The notes: a model not told the origin generated them from the sequence alone. DNA of 64,000 nucleotides from Octopus vulgaris (GCA_951406725.2 OX597817.1:175832001-175896000); one strand, 5' to 3'. Positions 55,424-64,000 are shown, numbered from the stretch's first letter. Numbers and translations are program-made.

Positions 55424-55426
<3 letters not shown>

Positions 55427-55977
55427 TGGAAAAAACCCTTCTTTCAGACCATGACATGGTTCTCTGTAACATGAAATTCCACCAGCCGAAAGCTAATCCT
55501 AGTGACCTCCCTCCAGCCCACCCATTTGACAACATGGATCTCCATAATGCCAACTGGGATGCAATCAGGAACGAGCTATCACATCAGCAATCCTGATATG
55601 GCCGATCTGGGCTGTATCAGTGATGTCAACCCCCAACACACTATATCGGACATAACGTTTAGTGCCCCTGATGTCTTAGCGGCGATGCACAATTATTTCA
55701 CCTCAATTGGCCCCGCTCTCTTTAACATTACACCAAAACACATTAAAACAGAAACTGACCCTATAGGGTTCAAGAAGTCTTTGGACAGATTCCTTCAAAA
55801 AATCCCGGATAAACCCCCCTACACCCGGATATGTCTCTGTAAACAATAACTCTCTACTTGAGTGGGCCATAGTGCCCAAATTCTGACTTGAAAGACTTCA
55901 CCAGGTGGTGCTATTAAGTTAGACATGGCATAGGCCAATAATGGCCGAAACCTATCAAAGTATCAAAGTATCAAAGT
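55424..55977 (+). mobile_element. Doubly internally deleted CR1-type LINE with (TATCAAAG)3 tail
   Basis: LSDHDMV (end of APE endonuclease), DITFSAPDVLAAM (linker) and GPALFN..P..FKKSLDRFLQKIPDKP (C-terminus) joined within about 550 bp. Confidence 0.75.
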
Positions 55978-55980
55978 ATG

Positions 55981-56038
<58 letters not shown>

Positions 56039-56129
56039 GGAGTAAACACATAAATGTGAAACAAGGTGGAAAAAAGAGTACTCAAATACCAGTGGTAGAG
56101 TAATATGCTTTATTTTAAGCAGCAGAAAA

Positions 56130-56190
56130 TTCAACAAAATCTGTTACTCTGAGTTTCTCGTTGCCGTTCATCAGACAGTTTTTGCTAGAA
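56130..56190 (-). ncRNA. Minimal type I hammerhead ribozyme, sense to the PLE ORF
   Basis: aaaaactgt-CTGATGA-a cg gcaa cg a-GAAAC-tcaga-GTA-acagatttt. Stems I and III pair; predicted cut after GUA (56145/56144). Confidence 0.78.
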
Positions 56191-58317
56191 TGGAACTTAT
56201 ATATTAATTCAATCTATACTCTTACAAACGCTACACCTTTAAAAAGAAATGGACTTGTTTGATTGGCCCTTTAGAAAAAACGGTCAATCTTCGAGCGATA
56301 AACAAAAAGGTCAAAAATATATGTATATATATATAAAAAAACTTATAAAAATTATAAAATCCGAGGAAAAAATCGAGGAAAAAAACCTATTGCCGTTAAT
56401 GAAGACAGTACAAATTAATGCATAGAAATTAAACCTGTTATAAATACTGCAATACATATTTATATTAAAATCCACATATATATATCAACATACACAAAAG
56501 GATGCGCGTAAACGCCATACATACATATACAGACGTATGAATATGAATCTAAATATACACATAAAAGCATGTGTACATATATTCACGCAAACCGTCTCGC
56601 ACGCAAGCTAAAATTCATCTATGTAGCAATTCTCATATACTGAGCAAGGAGGGGGAACGAAAGAAAGGGAAAGAGAGAAAAAGGAACGAAGGAGGGGTGG
56701 GGAAAAAACTTGTAACGATGTTATTGGCATCTATAGAGGCCAGTATACATACACAAGTTTGAATTGATAATATACATACCGTCGTGTATATGTGTGCTTA
56801 AGCACAAGCATACTTTCACTTACACATACACAGATACGCATGCTTACAAATACATATGCTTTGCTATACACATACTTATATAAACATTCTAATTTTGACA
56901 ACATTGCTTTTTTTAAAAAAAACATTGCTTTTAAAAAATGGGTGCATTAATAAAAATATATACGAAAGACATATAAAATAAAATATAACATCCTATTTTG
57001 GGTCATTTATAAATAATCAAGGTAATATAAATAATCAAGGTAATCCTATGCAATACAATAACATGAAAACAAAGTTTGTAGGTTTTTCCTAATATATATG
57101 TAGAAACAATAAGACTTTGCTATAGATCCGTCGTAGCGCTCAAGAGTCAAAATCAAAATCAAAAATCAAAATACAAAATATATACTCTATCCATATGGTA
57201 TATTTATATTCGACATTTTAAATTTAGCCGCGTGCCTACATAAGTTCATTAACTCACTTCTTTGATTCAAAGAATTATTGTCTTTGAATAAGATGTGCAT
57301 TTTCTCTAATAAGCAAAGTCTGCACTTGAAATTATATTTGTAAGCTCCATGTCTGTATGGTGCCGCCCTGTCCAGAATGCTCCATGTCACGTTGAAAGGA
57401 GGGGCTTCCTTTTCTTTTAGTTCCCAGACATATTTTGCTAGGCTGGTTTTCTTCCTATTCTCTGGGTATTTAAAAGAATTCTTATGAGAATAAAATCTTG
57501 TTTTAAATGAATTTTCTGAAGCCCCTGTGTATGTCTTGTATTCCGATGAGCCTTCCACTTGCACCTTGGCTCTATAAACTACTCCTTTCACTAGACATTT
57601 CCCTTCTAACGGACAGGAGCTTTCGTTTTTGAAATTACATTTCTTAATGGGCTCGGCACCATGTCTAATCTCAATTAGCTTCCTATTATGTTGGCTAATG
57701 TAAGAGGCGAAATTTCTGCAACAAGAATAGCTAACCTTCAGGGTTCTTCTATTAAATATTCTGTAGAATTTATGACCCTGCTTAAAATGCTTAGAGACTA
57801 ATCTCAAAAATTCCTTACCTATATTAGTCTTTACGGCCAAATTGAAAGCCGGGTTGAACCACAAAACTTTCCTGGTCCTAGTTCTTCGTGCAGCATTATT
57901 ATTAGCATTAAGCTGGTTGAACTGGAATATATGTACACATGCTTTTATGTGTATATTTAGATTCATATTCATACGTCTGTATATGTATGTATGGCGTTTA
58001 CGCGCATCCTTTTGTGTATGTTGATATATATATGTGGATTTTAATATAAATATGTATTGCAGTATTTATAACAGGTTTAATTTCTATGCATTAATTTGTA
58101 CTGTCTTCATTAACGGCAATAGGTTTTTTCCTCGGTTTTTTCCTCGGATTTTATAATTTTTATAAGTTTTTTTATATATATATACATATATTTTTGACCT
58201 TTTTGTTTATCGCTCGAAGATTGACCGTTTTTTCTAAAGGGCCAATCAAACAAGTCCATTTCTTTTTAAAGGTGTAGCGTTTGTAAGAGTATAGATTGAA
58301 TTAATATATAAGTTCCA

Positions 58318-58378
58318 TTCTAGCAAAAACTGTCTGATGAACGGCAACGAGAAACTCAGAGTAACAGATTTTGTTGAA
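58318..58378 (+). ncRNA. Minimal type I hammerhead ribozyme, inverted copy
   Basis: CTGATGA at 58334-58340, GAAAC at 58351, GTA at 58361-58363; identical to the minus-strand copy. Confidence 0.78.
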
Positions 58379-59469
58379 TTTTCTGCTGCTTAAAATAAAG
58401 TATATATATATATATACATATAAATATATACCGCATATGCTCGAGTAATAGTTGAAGACGCTTGTCTAAGGTGTTGCGCAGTAAAACTGAACCCGAAATC
58501 ACGCGCTTGTAAAACGAACTTCTTTACCACGTAGCTATGTCTGCGCCGAAGAATTTTGGGAATGTTCAGTAAAAATAAATAAATAAAATAACGAAATGTA
58601 GAATAGAATTCAATATTTATTTGTTTTGATATGAATAAATAAAAGCCATATTGGAAGCTTCTGCTTTCATGATGAGATAAAATGACAGTAGTCAGTACTT
58701 CATGATATAAACAAGAGATGTCAAAAGAATCGAATATATTCGAAATTATTCTAGCCATTTCCACGAATTAAAGACGATCGAAATTCATACACCGGTGTAT
58801 TTTTACTTATCTTTAATTGTATAATAAAATACATCAATAAATAGATATTCACAGAAGATAAAATTTGTGAAAAGATAGCTTTGAATCAATTGGTGAATAG
58901 ATGCTGTTTTGTTGTTTATCGACTACATTACTCTAGGTATTACGGATGAAAGAGCTGAATTAATGTGATAGTGATATTTAGAAAGATTTCAGGAACAAAA
59001 GCAACAAAAAACAAGTAGATGTACGATATAATTACTTTTGTGTAATGTAATGATAAACAGGAGAATTCAACATTTCGGATTGTGGTCCTTCGTCAAATAT
59101 GTAAGAGCTAAAGTCGTTTGATATAGTGTACTCCTGATTAGCAAAATTGCATTTTACTTAATCTGTATGACCGTAATTATTCCTAGTAATTATTGCATAA
59201 TTCAAAGTGTATGAAAATCTGACTCAGACTGATCGATGAAGAATATCAAAAGGAAGTGAATACTTTATGAGCAATAATGCAGATGGCTGCTATATATATA
59301 TATATATAAAAAGTGGCTTGGTCTGGATTTTGCGTACATTTAATTTGCGTATGCACATGCAAAACAGTGTAAATGAAGAACGTTTTATTCTTGTTATATT
59401 ACATATTCCATATATAAGATAAAACCTACTTGGAAGAGGATGCGTGGCATTTAATCCTATAATAATATA

Positions 59470-59749: not shown

Positions 59750-60603
59750 ACACCGTACTTCAATAGCTGCAGGAAGTGCAGATTATGCCTGGCTGAGAAG
59801 AGAGTGATTTTAAAAGATACCCAACGCCCAGATGTTTACCTGAATAGTAAGAGTGAGGTGGTTAATGCTTGCCCGCATGAAAGGAAGTACATTCTATCGC
59901 ACCTGCGCGCTCCACCATGACTGCAACCACAAGTTCCTTGCCTCGACCTTCTGCAAACGACCTTCCACCAATGCCCTTGAGCCCGACAAAAAGAGTTTTG
60001 ACCAAAGCACACACCAAGGCACCCATGTACACACATGCATACAATCCTATAAGGCGGATACCCCACAAACTAAACCAACCCGAATACATACTCTTTCACA
60101 TAAATTATACCCCAATATATATACACAGATCCCCCACGTATCGCACGCTAACATACCCTCCACACACACACATTACACACCGCACGCTAATAACCCCCAC
60201 ACACCACGGTTTTATGCTTTATAGAAAGAAAACAGACCAACGAACACAACTATATATACCTGTACCCCCGGAAAATATTATACATATGACATACCGCTAC
60301 ACATCCCCACAGGAGCACCACATTAATAATACACTTCCCCCACTTCAAGATAACTTTTGACGGCTTCACAGCATACCCAACCAAGTGTCATAACTCATAA
60401 ACTAATCTTCTGGCCTCTTTTCGTTCCATCACCTTTTTCACAGCAACCGTTGACCGGTTATACTAATCCACCTCCGACAATCGAGAGCAGTCGCTATATT
60501 CCGTTCTATAAATTCTGATGAGCGTGAAGTTATATAATCGGTTTGTTACCTAACATTCCATTGTATTCTTTATGCGAAACCGATTGATAAGGCCAGCCGT
60601 GAT

Positions 60604-60638: not shown

Positions 60639-61175
60639 AATTAATAAATAAAACATATGCATATATACATACATATATGTACGTACTTACATCTACATTT
60701 ATATATACGTGCATATATGGGTACAGGACACCAAAAAAAAAACGTCGAACACAATGAGAAACGAAAACATAAACACAAAACCAAGGAAATGGACATTTTT
60801 CTTAAACATCGAAAAAATAGAGTACAGGACATACAAAACAAGGAAAATTCCCCTTCTTCAGTCGCCATTGTTTCATCTACTCCGCGTTACAGAGGCGACT
60901 GAAGAAGGAGAATTTTCCTTGTATTGTATGTCCTGTACTCTATTTTTTTCGATGTTTAAGAAAAATGTCCATTTCCTTGGTTTTGTGTTTATGCTTTCGT
61001 TTCTCATTGTGTTCGACGTTTTTTTTTTGGTGTCCTGTACCCATATATGCATGTATATATACATGTAGACGTAGGTACGTACATATATGTATGTATATAT
61101 GCATATGTTTTATTTATTAATTAATTTATTATATGACAGAACGCACGCATCCATTTCTAAGTAAGTTTTATCTTA
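60639..61175 (+). repeat. Fold-back insertion: ~228-bp inverted arms (60639-60866 / 60894-61122) plus a ~53-nt unduplicated tail
   Basis: Arms read directly; same family and terminus as 9499-9778. Confidence 0.9.
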
Positions 61176-61189
61176 ATATATATATATAT

Positions 61190-64000
61190 GTTACGAAAAG
61201 AAAATATAAAATACACGTGGAAATGTAAGGGTAAAATATGAAAAATCAACGAAAATGCATATTGCAGATAGAAAAAGGCTATTTATGACAGGTAGTGACA
61301 AATATATACTTTAGATTGACTGAGGTAGTAATACGAGTCATAAAGGTCATTATTATGAGATGATTATAATAATAAAGTAAGAGGACAAAACGAACCAATT
61401 GGTTTACGCGAAGAGAAAAAAGATTATTTGTAAGGGAGGTAAGTAGTTCTGGAATTAGAGATGTGAGTGATGTAGATAGTGTATAGGGTTTAGTGGTTTA
61501 AATTGAAGAGTTAGTGGTGTTCTGTATTGAGTTGTGTGTTCATATTTATTTGGGGGAGAAATTTGTTGATGAAAAATGCCTCTTTATTCAACCTTTGTTG
61601 CATTGTGGTGTTCTGTGAGCATTGGTAAAAGGGAAATATTTGGAAATTGAGATTAAGATTCCTGGCACATCTTTCTATGTGTTCACTCACCTTTAACTGT
61701 CTGTATTGTGGGTGACGGATTTGCTCTTTGTGAAGGGTGATTCTTTGACGGAGCGAAATTCCTGTTCGTCCAATATAGTGTTTACCACATTCTATGCATG
61801 TCATGACATAGATTACATTTGCTGAGGCGCAGGTGAAATTTGATTTGATTTTAAATATTTCTCCTTGTTTGAAGTGAAATTCTGAACCCTCCAGAAGGTG
61901 GGGGCATGTTCCACAGTTAGAACGTCCACATTTTGTCACTTTTGGCTCAGTAGTTAGTGAGTAAAGTCTAGCGCTGGTTAATATTCTTTTCAGTGACTTC
62001 GGTTGCTTTTTGCTTTTTATAATTTTATATGAGCTTAAAATTTCGTTCATTGTTTTGTCTGCTGTGAGGATGGTGAGGTTTTGGGTGATGATGTTGAAGG
62101 CTTCGTTATTTCTGGGGTTATGTGTGGAGATGTACGGGAGTATTTTTAAGTCTTGCTTAGTATTTCGGCTAGTTTTCCTTAATCTTTGTATATCTATTCC
62201 CTTAGCTCTTTTGATGCCCTCATTTACTAATGAGATTGGGTAGTGTCTTTTAGTTAGTGTAGATCTAAGTTCAAGGAGTCTATGTTCACGAGTGTACGTA
62301 TCGGAAACTATGGTGCAGATTCTTTTAGCTAGGTTAAAGGGTATGTTGATTTTTATGTGTTTGGGGTGGCAGGAGTTAAATAATAGGTATTGTTTAGAAT
62401 CTGTGGGTTTATAAAGATGTCTGTTTCTATGTGGTTGTTAACTATTCTAATTAAGATGTCTAGAAAAGGTAGTTGCTTACTGTTGTGTTCCATAGTGAAT
62501 TGTATATTGCTGTGTATGTTGTTGAGCATTCTTTTGAAATCAAGGAGTTGATCCATTGCCAAAGTATGAAGCAATCATCTAAATATCTCTTCCATTTCTC
62601 CTTTAAGTAGCAATTGAAAGAGGCGCCATATTTTTCTAGTGATGATTGGTATAATTTAAGTTCGTGGTAACACATTACGAGGTTTGCAATCACTGGAGCA
62701 GCTCTGGTCCCCATTGCAATTCCGCATTCTGTCGATAGTAAGTAGTATCGAACAATAAATGATTGTTCAACAGGACGAATTTCAGTTCTTCAATTATAAA
62801 ATTGTGGTTAATTCGTCCTGGGATCTCTTCTGGGTGTTTTTCTAGCCAAAATGTGATTGTTTCTATACCATAGTCGTGTGGGATATTAGTGTATAGATTC
62901 TCCACATCGATTCACCAGTAGAGTTCTGTCCTTTACTGTCTTCGGGAGGTGGTTCAGCATGTCTAGGTCATCCCTGATATAGCTTTTCACATATTTTAAA
63001 AGAGGTTTGAGTAATATGTCAAGGAAGTTACTCAAACGGTGGGTTTCGCAAGGGCCAGCTATGATGGGTCTGAGTTTGAGGTCAATAGGTGGAGGGACAT
63101 TAATGCATAGGCTTGTAGAGACTTTGCAGGCTTCACAAATGAGTGGATTTTTATGTATTTTGGGTAATCCGTACAATAGACTAGGACTGTATTTGAAATT
63201 GGATAAATAGTCTATTTCAAGTTTAGTGAGACCCTTTCCATGAATGTGGAGCAAGGGGGATAAGTTTTTCAGTGTTTTCTGTGGGTTGTAATATGTTAGT
63301 TTCTCATAGTAAGTATTATTTTCCAACATGGAATGTATTAAATTTTTGTAGTACTCTGTATCCATCAAAACTACCACACTTTCTTTGTCGGCTTCTTTAA
63401 TAGTGAGGTTTATGTCATTTTTTAGCTCGACAAGGTCTTTCCATTCGTTTAAAATAAGGTTGGATTTGATATGTTGTTTTGGAATGGTATTGTAAGGAAA
63501 ACAAGTTATGTGATCACAGAAAACATCAAGTGCTTTATTTCTACATTTTGTAGGATGGTACTCACTTTTGTTTTTCACTATTGAGTCATCTTCACTGGTA
63601 TAGTTGTGAAGAGCTTCTGTGTGGCGTAATTTACGGCAGAAGTCCAAAGTATTGTCCTTAATTTCATTTGGGTTCGATCTGCGGTGGGTAGGGGTAAATT
63701 TTAGACCTCTTGCTAGGATTTTGATTTGTGTAGAACTCGGGATTTTCTTTGACAGGTTGATTATTTTCGGTTGGACTTGTTTATTTGTTTCCATTTCACA
63801 TTTCTGTTTCTCTGGTTTGCGTCTAAAAAATGGTTGTAGTATGTGGATTGTAGTGGAAGGTCTGTATTTTGTTTGGTTTGCTGAGGGAAAGGTGGGTGTA
63901 AATTGTGTCTATGGTAGTATGTTTGTGGTGGAGTGGTTGTGTAGTGTACTGGATTATGGTTGTACTGAGGATTGTTATATCGTCTGTGGCTGATGTAGTC
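61190..64000 (-). mobile_element. Penelope-like retroelement (RT plus C-terminal GIY-YIG), frameshifted, running off the right edge
   Basis: IINLS, LARGLKFTP, EADK, YGLPKIHK, LRPII, LYTNIP, MGT.AAP..ANL, RYLDD, FTME..LPFLD; Cys linker CGRSNCGTC; NVIY..C..C..HYIG.T (61511-62050). Confidence 0.95.

Follow-up and report, generated by a model that had tools for sequence, protein, structure and literature searches.

Why do the two inverted arms of one Penelope-like element (PLE) insertion end at different places, one with a tail and the other without? The insertion lies in a window of 64,000 nt from Octopus vulgaris (GCA_951406725.2 OX597817.1:175832001-175896000), the window being the whole stretch of DNA that was analysed. 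An inverted 5'-truncated copy with a tail at one end is the typical PLE layout, and Penelope-13_HM has exactly this layout with a hammerhead on each strand (PMC8557442). A tail is also found optionally on one of the inverted pseudo-LTRs (pLTRs) of Adineta vaga PLEs (PMC3846280). The insertion as a whole, with its inverted arms, is ordinary, its layout being already known for PLEs. The formation of tandem and inverted structures and of tails is named as unresolved in PMC8557442, and internal starts have been shown with no defined RNA signal in the sections of PMC11167929 drawn on here. The pair of leader hairpins described below matters for these two reasons.

Layout of the insertion

The element is oriented on the minus strand in the order inverted arm, 244-codon open fragment, 3' UTR, sense arm and 71-nt tail (Table 1). 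The original prediction saw almost identical inverted arms around an ORF fragment and a last stretch of ~70 nt that is not duplicated, and both observations hold. Arms 56108-56584 and 57925-58400 have 2 differences over 476-477 nt, one substitution and one homopolymer indel, and 56037-56107 has no duplicate in the right arm. The distance from the ORF to the hammerhead is 1015 nt in the window versus 77-539 nt in 59 of 60 relatives.

Table 1. Positions of the features of the insertion and of the solo tails of its family in the window
Feature	Position	Strand	Flanks, content or basis
Whole insertion: inverted tail-less arm, EN fragment, long 3' UTR, sense arm, tail	56037..58400	-	(TA)n at either side
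Left (TA)n target run	55986..56036		sequence
Right (TA)n target run	58401..58417		sequence
Unduplicated tail, 71 nt	56037..56107	-	outer terminus 56037, 65 nt from hairpin 1 start
Tail hairpin 1	56077..56101	-	ACUC-UACC-ACU-GGUA-UUU-GAGU-ACU
Sense pLTR arm, 477 nt	56108..56584	-	
Type I hammerhead motif, sense copy	56138..56181	-	core 56174-56154; predicted cut after 56145
Unduplicated 3' UTR	56585..57186	-	family sequence, tiled by near-identical contigs
C-terminal 244+ codons of Hydra-clade PLE ORF, 5'-truncated at 57926	57187..57926	-	linker, finger, GIY-YIG-type EN (by homology), CxxC..E..N..CxH
Head-to-head junction microhomology, 2 nt	57925..57926	+	
Inverted tail-less arm, 476 nt	57925..58400	+	end 2-7 nt ahead of hairpin 1 start position
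Type I hammerhead motif, inverted copy	58327..58370	+	core 58334-58354; predicted cut after 58363
Solo tail, same family, identical to 56037-56102	1259..1324	-	(TA)n both sides; begins at hairpin 1 foot
Solo tail, same family, 2 differences/71 nt	21912..21982	+	(TA)n at outer end

Other copies of the family bear on the termini. The solo tail at 1259-1324 begins at the hairpin 1 foot and shares its outer end with the window tail. Records from runs X1, X2 and X13 (79, 30 and 3 contig records, respectively) have (TA)n as loose ends before 56103, and since (TA)n abuts this position in three runs, the place where the right arm ends without a tail is a terminus throughout the family. The target is (TA)n at both ends of the insertion, at the solo tails and in all 112 of these loose-end records; (TA)n is abundant in the host animal, and the repeats nearby appear cephalopod-like. 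Loose ends behind 57926 indicate that the ORF continues upstream of this position in other copies, so the window copy is 5'-truncated. At 58036/56472 both arms have G where most of the summed contig depth has A, and this shared minority base suggests that the arms are likely derived from a common source. Among the 15 joints listed, to which 112 further joints are to be added, 13 join left arm to right arm in other runs, so short head-to-head copies are present elsewhere. Many of these short copies (listed joints, mirrored to 58317-58368) have their break at 58317-58324, where the extended stem I has its 5' foot. Such breaks retain the whole hammerhead, which fits an uncleaved RNA as template. 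Truncation at the ribozyme cut site was rejected, as no listed joint lies exactly at 58363/58364 or its mirror (112 further).

The family has many copies of mixed age: among 14736 of its records in run X1, 2992 are 99+% alike and 1042 fall under 90%. Run depth is given throughout as summed contig depth, which is a basis neither for copy number nor for expression, and run X13 is guessed to be RNA. The insertion is likely young, as had been proposed, given the 2 arm differences, the open ORF fragment and the many records at 99+%.

Identity of the element

The ORF fragment is stop-free over 244 aa on the minus strand and has 57% identity to a 713-aa RT+EN protein, its best homologue (P0001). It aligns C-terminally with 15 proteins of 486-854 aa, in which a C-terminal EN follows RT in a single ORF. 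The fragment had been called GIY-YIG, and this label may be kept by homology to those C-termini, with weak fold support. A Pfam search of the fragment gave no match and gave a weak GIY-YIG match in 2 of the 15 homologues, and Foldseek listed I-TevI, UvrC, Hpy188I and T4 EndoII for the fragment, none at E<=0.001. The CxCX5C-type finger has F at the second C in the window copy; the codon at 57632 is C in other copies (189/197 of the depth in X13), and a relaxed CxCX5C pattern is found in 14/15 homologues. CxxC..E and N..CxH are present in the window and in 15/15 homologues, and CCHH is absent (judged by eye). The RWK and DKT motifs are found in the best homologue and in 11/15 and 13/15 homologues, respectively, and RT has been truncated away in the window copy.

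The Hydra clade is defined by clade protein motifs, a (TA)n target and a hammerhead (PMC8557442). CxxC..E..N..CxH, the RWK and DKT of the homologues, the (TA)n target and the hammerhead are therefore Hydra-clade features, and the element is almost certainly a 5'-truncated, multi-copy Hydra-clade PLE in (TA)n. The original prediction had a TA-targeting PLE with inverted pLTRs, in agreement with these motifs and with (TA)n at both ends. It named no clade and overlooked the tail hairpin, the more telling feature. Protein motifs and target are shared with Penelope-13_HM and Hydra-2_Amil, the 5'-truncated inverted copy with a hammerhead on both strands is shared with Penelope-13_HM, and Hydra-2_Amil has an identical stem I and a nearly identical stem III (PMC8557442). 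The window family lies outside those presented in the sections of PMC8557442 drawn on here, and its hammerhead differs from that of Hydra-1_Obim. Its 3' UTR is ~1.15 kb and its tail is ~65-70 nt, compared with 30-40 nt for the tails of published Hydra elements (PMC8557442).

A single-protein metagenome scan and a viral scan each returned no relatives. Sixteen Hydra-like PLE loci (L082-L097) in prokaryote-labelled genomes and MAGs are likely host-animal contamination. The element was also compared with non-LTR retrozymes, which are tandem non-coding units with a hammerhead in each (10.64898/2026.07.22.740005), and this identity was rejected since the units here are inverted and accompanied by an ORF fragment.

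The hammerhead motif

Each arm has CUGAUGA, a 10-nt stem II region (A CG GCAA CG A), GAAA, the palindromic ACUCAGAGU, GUA and a 4-bp stem I. That each arm carries a complete core, as predicted, is borne out by a strict descriptor, which finds only these two sites in the window and gives 0 matches in 40 order-3 Markov shuffles. A covariance model of 15 relatives, with the window excluded, scores both sites at 38.8 bits (E ~8e-10) and the runner-up at 18.4 bits. Helices I-III covary among the relatives. The Rfam hammerhead models, which had been suggested for a search, give no match in the window; they also miss the motifs in 10/10 related loci, so the window miss says nothing. The folding z-score of the hammerhead is not significant.

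Stem II has 2 bp with A.A at 10.1/11.1, so there is no G10.1-C11.1 pair, just as was first described. The further claim of an unusual ribozyme variant was overstated. For comparison 94 related loci were fetched, 7 of them without the C-terminus and 78 with at least 150 nt downstream, and a hammerhead was found 3' of EN in 60 of the 94. The 52 distinct related cores have U.U (23), G-C (21), A-U (4), G.U (3) or C.A (1) at 10.1/11.1, so that 31/52 are without G10.1-C11.1. The published Hydra families, in our interpretation of the table in PMC8557442, have G-C in 7/25 and not in 18/25. The pair is thus not defining in the clade, and the window ribozyme is, on comparison of the cores, of a type ordinary for Hydra elements. 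One related locus (L013) has the same mismatch, 2 bp and tetraloop in stem II as the window, and stem III is self-complementary in 52/52 cores. Only A.A is unseen elsewhere (0/52 relatives), and its 3' A (58350/56158) is G in 37-41% of the summed contig depth in four runs. Among the best 40 of 127 variant rows, the sites within the ribozyme are 58350/56158 and 56140, both unpaired. The type I fold, the palindromic stem III and the position near the 3' end are common to the Hydra clade and the window, and A.A or A.G at 10.1/11.1 is unlike the Hydra-clade systems compared (PMC8557442). Minimal PLE hammerheads share the type I core, the palindromic helix III and an expected low monomer activity with the window, but they have a highly conserved G10.1-C11.1 and a long helix II (PMC4209133), whereas Hydra-clade cores often have U.U and a short helix II.

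Is the hammerhead of the window copy likely to be active? The best fold of the monomer is inactive (-13.0 versus -5.8 kcal/mol for the active fold), and the best fold of two copies is a double hammerhead (-28.2 versus 2 x -13.0 kcal/mol). The active fold is predicted only as a dimer, which agrees with the dimer type first suggested; self-cleavage is judged here from folding energies only. The two motifs lie on opposite strands, which leaves no dimer pairing within one RNA. Whichever strand were transcribed, the arm with the motif would come second and would pair with the complementary arm already made. A transcript from either strand would carry a hammerhead, as predicted, which is not special because it follows from the known inverted copy; opposite-strand hammerhead pairs 100-700 bp apart have already been reported (PMC4209133). 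The long dsRNA proposed for a read-through RNA is likewise predicted, but the hammerhead would be locked in it, and the motif is likely inert in the window copy.

Further hammerhead-like sites were observed. A site at 10384-10422 (18.4 bits) has a Hydra-type core and the same palindromic stem III with no stem II and a broken stem I; it was taken for a decayed relative. The hammerhead pattern gave three matches in viral sequences, all without stem I, which were put down to chance.

Twin hairpins in the leaders

The tail begins with a bulged hairpin, which recurs in relatives; there GCUC is followed by a stem that varies, a bulge of 2 nt (UU in most) and GAGCACU. The first pair of the window hairpin is A-U versus G-C in the relatives, and its bulge is 3 nt versus 2. 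The motif is found 5' of 59/68 ORF starts and is double in 39, against a background of 5/511 ORF-interior windows and 4/49 antisense flanks. The two hairpins are spaced 55-74 nt apart in 38 related leaders, and the end of hairpin 2 lies at a median of ~20 nt before the first ATG. Hairpin 2 of the family of the window is predicted; the distance in the window from the start of hairpin 1 to the end of the tail is 65 nt, within the 55-74 nt of the leaders. One leader (L039:148-300) has a single hairpin before the ORF and is a possible natural test of tail absence.

The four outer pairs alone served to select hairpins, and covariation of the inner pairs was counted in 30 families. Inner pair 1 of hairpin 1 is paired in 30/30 (18 U-A, 12 C-G), which 0/5000 shuffles reached, although kinship alone can let related sequences exceed shuffles without structure; the second and third inner pairs are paired in 25/30 and 20/27, respectively. 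In 25 aligned sequences the covariation score is 0.287 versus 0.094 shuffled and <=0.133 slid, with 96% of cells paired, and the outer stem shows a G-C to A-U double change in the window and a U-A to A-U change in L087. Hairpin 2 covaries weakly (second pair 15/30, 501/5000 shuffles). The folding z-score of the tail hairpin alone is not significant. The commonest tail variant listed (56093) falls in the hairpin loop. Counts of G.U versus A.C (2:1, 3:2) show no preference for a structure in RNA over one in cDNA.

By eye, three of the six new consensi of PMC8557442 carry hairpin 1 (Hydra-2_Amil, Hydra-2_Ajap and, as a variant, Hydra-1_Crog), and the published consensus of Hydra-1_Obim has no clear hairpin motif. 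The pair has no Rfam match. No description of it was found in the open-access literature searched, and there is no mention in the text or supplement text of PMC8557442. The conserved twin hairpin across the clade appears to be new; the window insertion itself is a known kind of element. A 25-nt covarying motif that occurs twice at fixed spacing in 30 families lends itself to exact mutants and to the annotation of Hydra ends.

Hairpins and copy ends

The related copies gave 33 listed 3' ends, of which 12 cross-family rows were dropped by hand (L005 twice, L006, L008, L024, L026, L051, L055, L067, L068, L078 and L088) and 21 same-family ends were kept, the 3' end of L086 being taken from the leader-spacing data. 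Ten of the 21 lie at -12..0 of hairpin 1 and ten at -8..-2 of hairpin 2; the exception, L016, ends 27 nt before hairpin 2. The clustering has p<1e-9 under a uniform null, with about 14 family groups among the ends. The ends of the window insertion match the hairpins in the same way, the inner one lying 2-7 nt before hairpin 1 and the outer one 65 nt after its start. The hairpins are very probably tied to the termini. TATA/ATAT words are enriched directly 5' of the hairpins (61/763 versus 26/2395 positions), so the ends could also be set by (TA)n pairing alone.

A tail at only one end is seen in the window, L084, L089 (two pairs) and L094, and L084 has the same layout as the window with 763-nt identical arms. 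This asymmetry, in 5/6 pairs, is not significant (p ~0.11), and the five related pairs come from one assembly. The remaining pair, L089 1681-1830/5377-5526, is tail-less at both ends but lies inside a larger inverted duplication. At L089:1449-1830 and 5377-6008 the arms run through the TA run into a shared 139-nt flank, and an inverted pair of another family is nested between the arms.

A possible mechanism and its alternatives

The ends of the window insertion may come from two cDNAs, each begun just upstream of one conserved leader hairpin. As a full account this is the best explanation, held with modest confidence a little above an even balance; the two-cDNA step itself, drawn by analogy, stands just at that balance. 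In a tandem-copy RNA the hammerhead would be followed by hairpin 1, hairpin 2 and the ATG. Both (TA)n strands would be nicked by the protein, which is likely to be dimeric, like the predicted dimer of the anole PLE. Each subunit would hold one hairpin, with the short AU-rich stretch on the 5' side of that hairpin as the priming site. The hairpin-2 cDNA would carry the tail and in the window would have run 1.9 kb into the EN domain, and the hairpin-1 cDNA, made on the other strand of the target, would be tail-less and would have reached 476 nt. Head-to-head joining of the two cDNAs would then take place at the 2-nt microhomology. A start just upstream of each hairpin would make the tail length equal to the hairpin spacing, and two cDNAs on opposite strands joined at their truncated ends would leave one arm tailed and the other tail-less. 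A hairpin-2 cDNA stopping at the hairpin-1 site would give a solo tail. It is possible, somewhat short of an even balance, that the twin RNA hairpin docks two protein subunits on one RNA with cDNA starts on opposite target strands. If so, one cis-signal would explain the tail, its length, the solo tails and the one-tailed inverted arms, and the questions of tails and inverted arms in this telomerase-related class would be addressed. The hairpin pair may also provide a telomerase-related, (TA)n-targeting reverse transcriptase with a portable loading signal.

The closest precedent is Poseidon PAc of Anolis, in which two internal start sites bound the tail and both target strands are cut and extended (PMC11167929). 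The protein is a predicted dimer, RNA 3' of the start sites is required and the hammerhead is dispensable for insertion (PMC11167929). Two starts bounding the tail, an AT-rich target and the use of both strands are shared with the mechanism proposed for the window. However, Poseidon PAc belongs to a different clade and has one AC-rich stem loop inside the ORF, not a duplicated leader hairpin; its start site is not homologous to the target and lies within the stem loop (PMC11167929), whereas Hydra ends lie beside the hairpin. The sections of that work drawn on here give no account of inverted arms. By analogy we infer that the downstream RNA signal of the anole PLE would correspond in Hydra elements to the hairpins, one per start.

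A second comparison is with the eel LINE UnaL2. The UnaL2 stem-loop is single and lies inside the copied 3' end. Hydra elements differ in having two hairpins, each 3' of its terminus, with hairpin 2 excluded from the copy. Both systems have a bulged RNA hairpin near the element end, and that of UnaL2 is needed for mobilisation (PMC1636434).

Are the hairpins starts or cuts? A single cDNA could fold back or switch template at the 2-nt microhomology, with EN then cutting beside the hairpin as a DNA or cDNA structure, in which case the hairpins would mark cut sites. This is the leading alternative, though an unlikely one. EN-mediated resolution is given as the tail origin (PMC8557442), the D. virilis EN needs the tail for recognition (PMC11167929), and several 5' junctions likewise start near a hairpin foot (L018, L086, L010). 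The G.U and A.C counts favour neither kind of strand. The only in vitro PLE data, however, map RT starts to the tail boundaries (PMC11167929), and inner stems that are variable yet paired argue against plain double-stranded sequence recognition. It is more doubtful that the hairpins have another leader role, such as in translation, RNA packaging or a promoter, and that the ends arise from AU-rich words pairing with a (TA)n primer. The enrichment of TATA/ATAT words 5' of both hairpins and the closeness of hairpin 2 to the first ATG are in keeping with such roles, but the AU words are conserved too, at a constant position next to the hairpins, and 20/21 ends lie at hairpin feet in spite of 26 other leader TATA/ATAT positions. 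The data here cannot separate a start signal, an EN cut signal and AU-word pairing.

The remaining alternatives are much weaker. Inversion by self-priming on an antisense template has been proposed for rotifer PLEs, where head-to-head junctions have palindromes (PMC3846280); the window junction has a 1.34-kb spacer, a 2-nt microhomology and no palindrome, and self-priming leaves two fixed termini unexplained, which makes it very improbable here. The sections of PMC3846280 drawn on here give no cis-signal for the termini of the Adineta vaga PLEs. Slightly less probable still is that the locus, with a distinct hammerhead variant, works as a ribozyme on both strands or as a dsRNA device. The motif is intact in both arms, A.A is found in none of the 52 related cores and a read-through RNA would form a long duplex, but the layout is shared with Penelope-13_HM and L084, the best monomer fold traps the core, in a transcript of either strand the complement would precede the hammerhead arm, and no record among those listed spans the insertion. 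That the inverted arm is an assembly artefact is barely credible: inverted repeats and (TA)n runs pose difficulties for assembly and the junction is unbridged among the listed records, but the arms differ at 2 sites, the flanking sequences are unlike each other, the arm stops at a terminus found across the family and the joints in other runs show short head-to-head copies.

Other features of the window

Several other stretches of the window resemble PLE ends or parts of them. A spacer-less head-to-head palindrome at 60640-61120, with ~300-nt arms that are 92% alike, is the end of another repeat family. A single copy of this repeat at ~9445-9700 has by eye a decayed hammerhead, so the repeat is likely another PLE end. 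The C-terminal fragment of a second Hydra-like ORF lies at 59774-59914 (42% over 48 aa), and 61697-61951 weakly matches a GIY-YIG-like stretch of another type (E 0.21). Short near-perfect palindromes at 24920-25184 and 22999-23182 lie beside (TA)n runs, with no hammerhead core found in them. A fragment at 55424-55980 between two (TA)n runs ends in (TATCAAAG)-type repeats, with no Pfam match, and presumably resembles a LINE 3' end. A hammerhead-like core on the minus strand at 39376-39398, near a (TA)n run, may belong to another PLE family. Two hammerhead-like cores at 16196-16326, on opposite strands and ~50 nt apart, are likely a short inverted PLE remnant.
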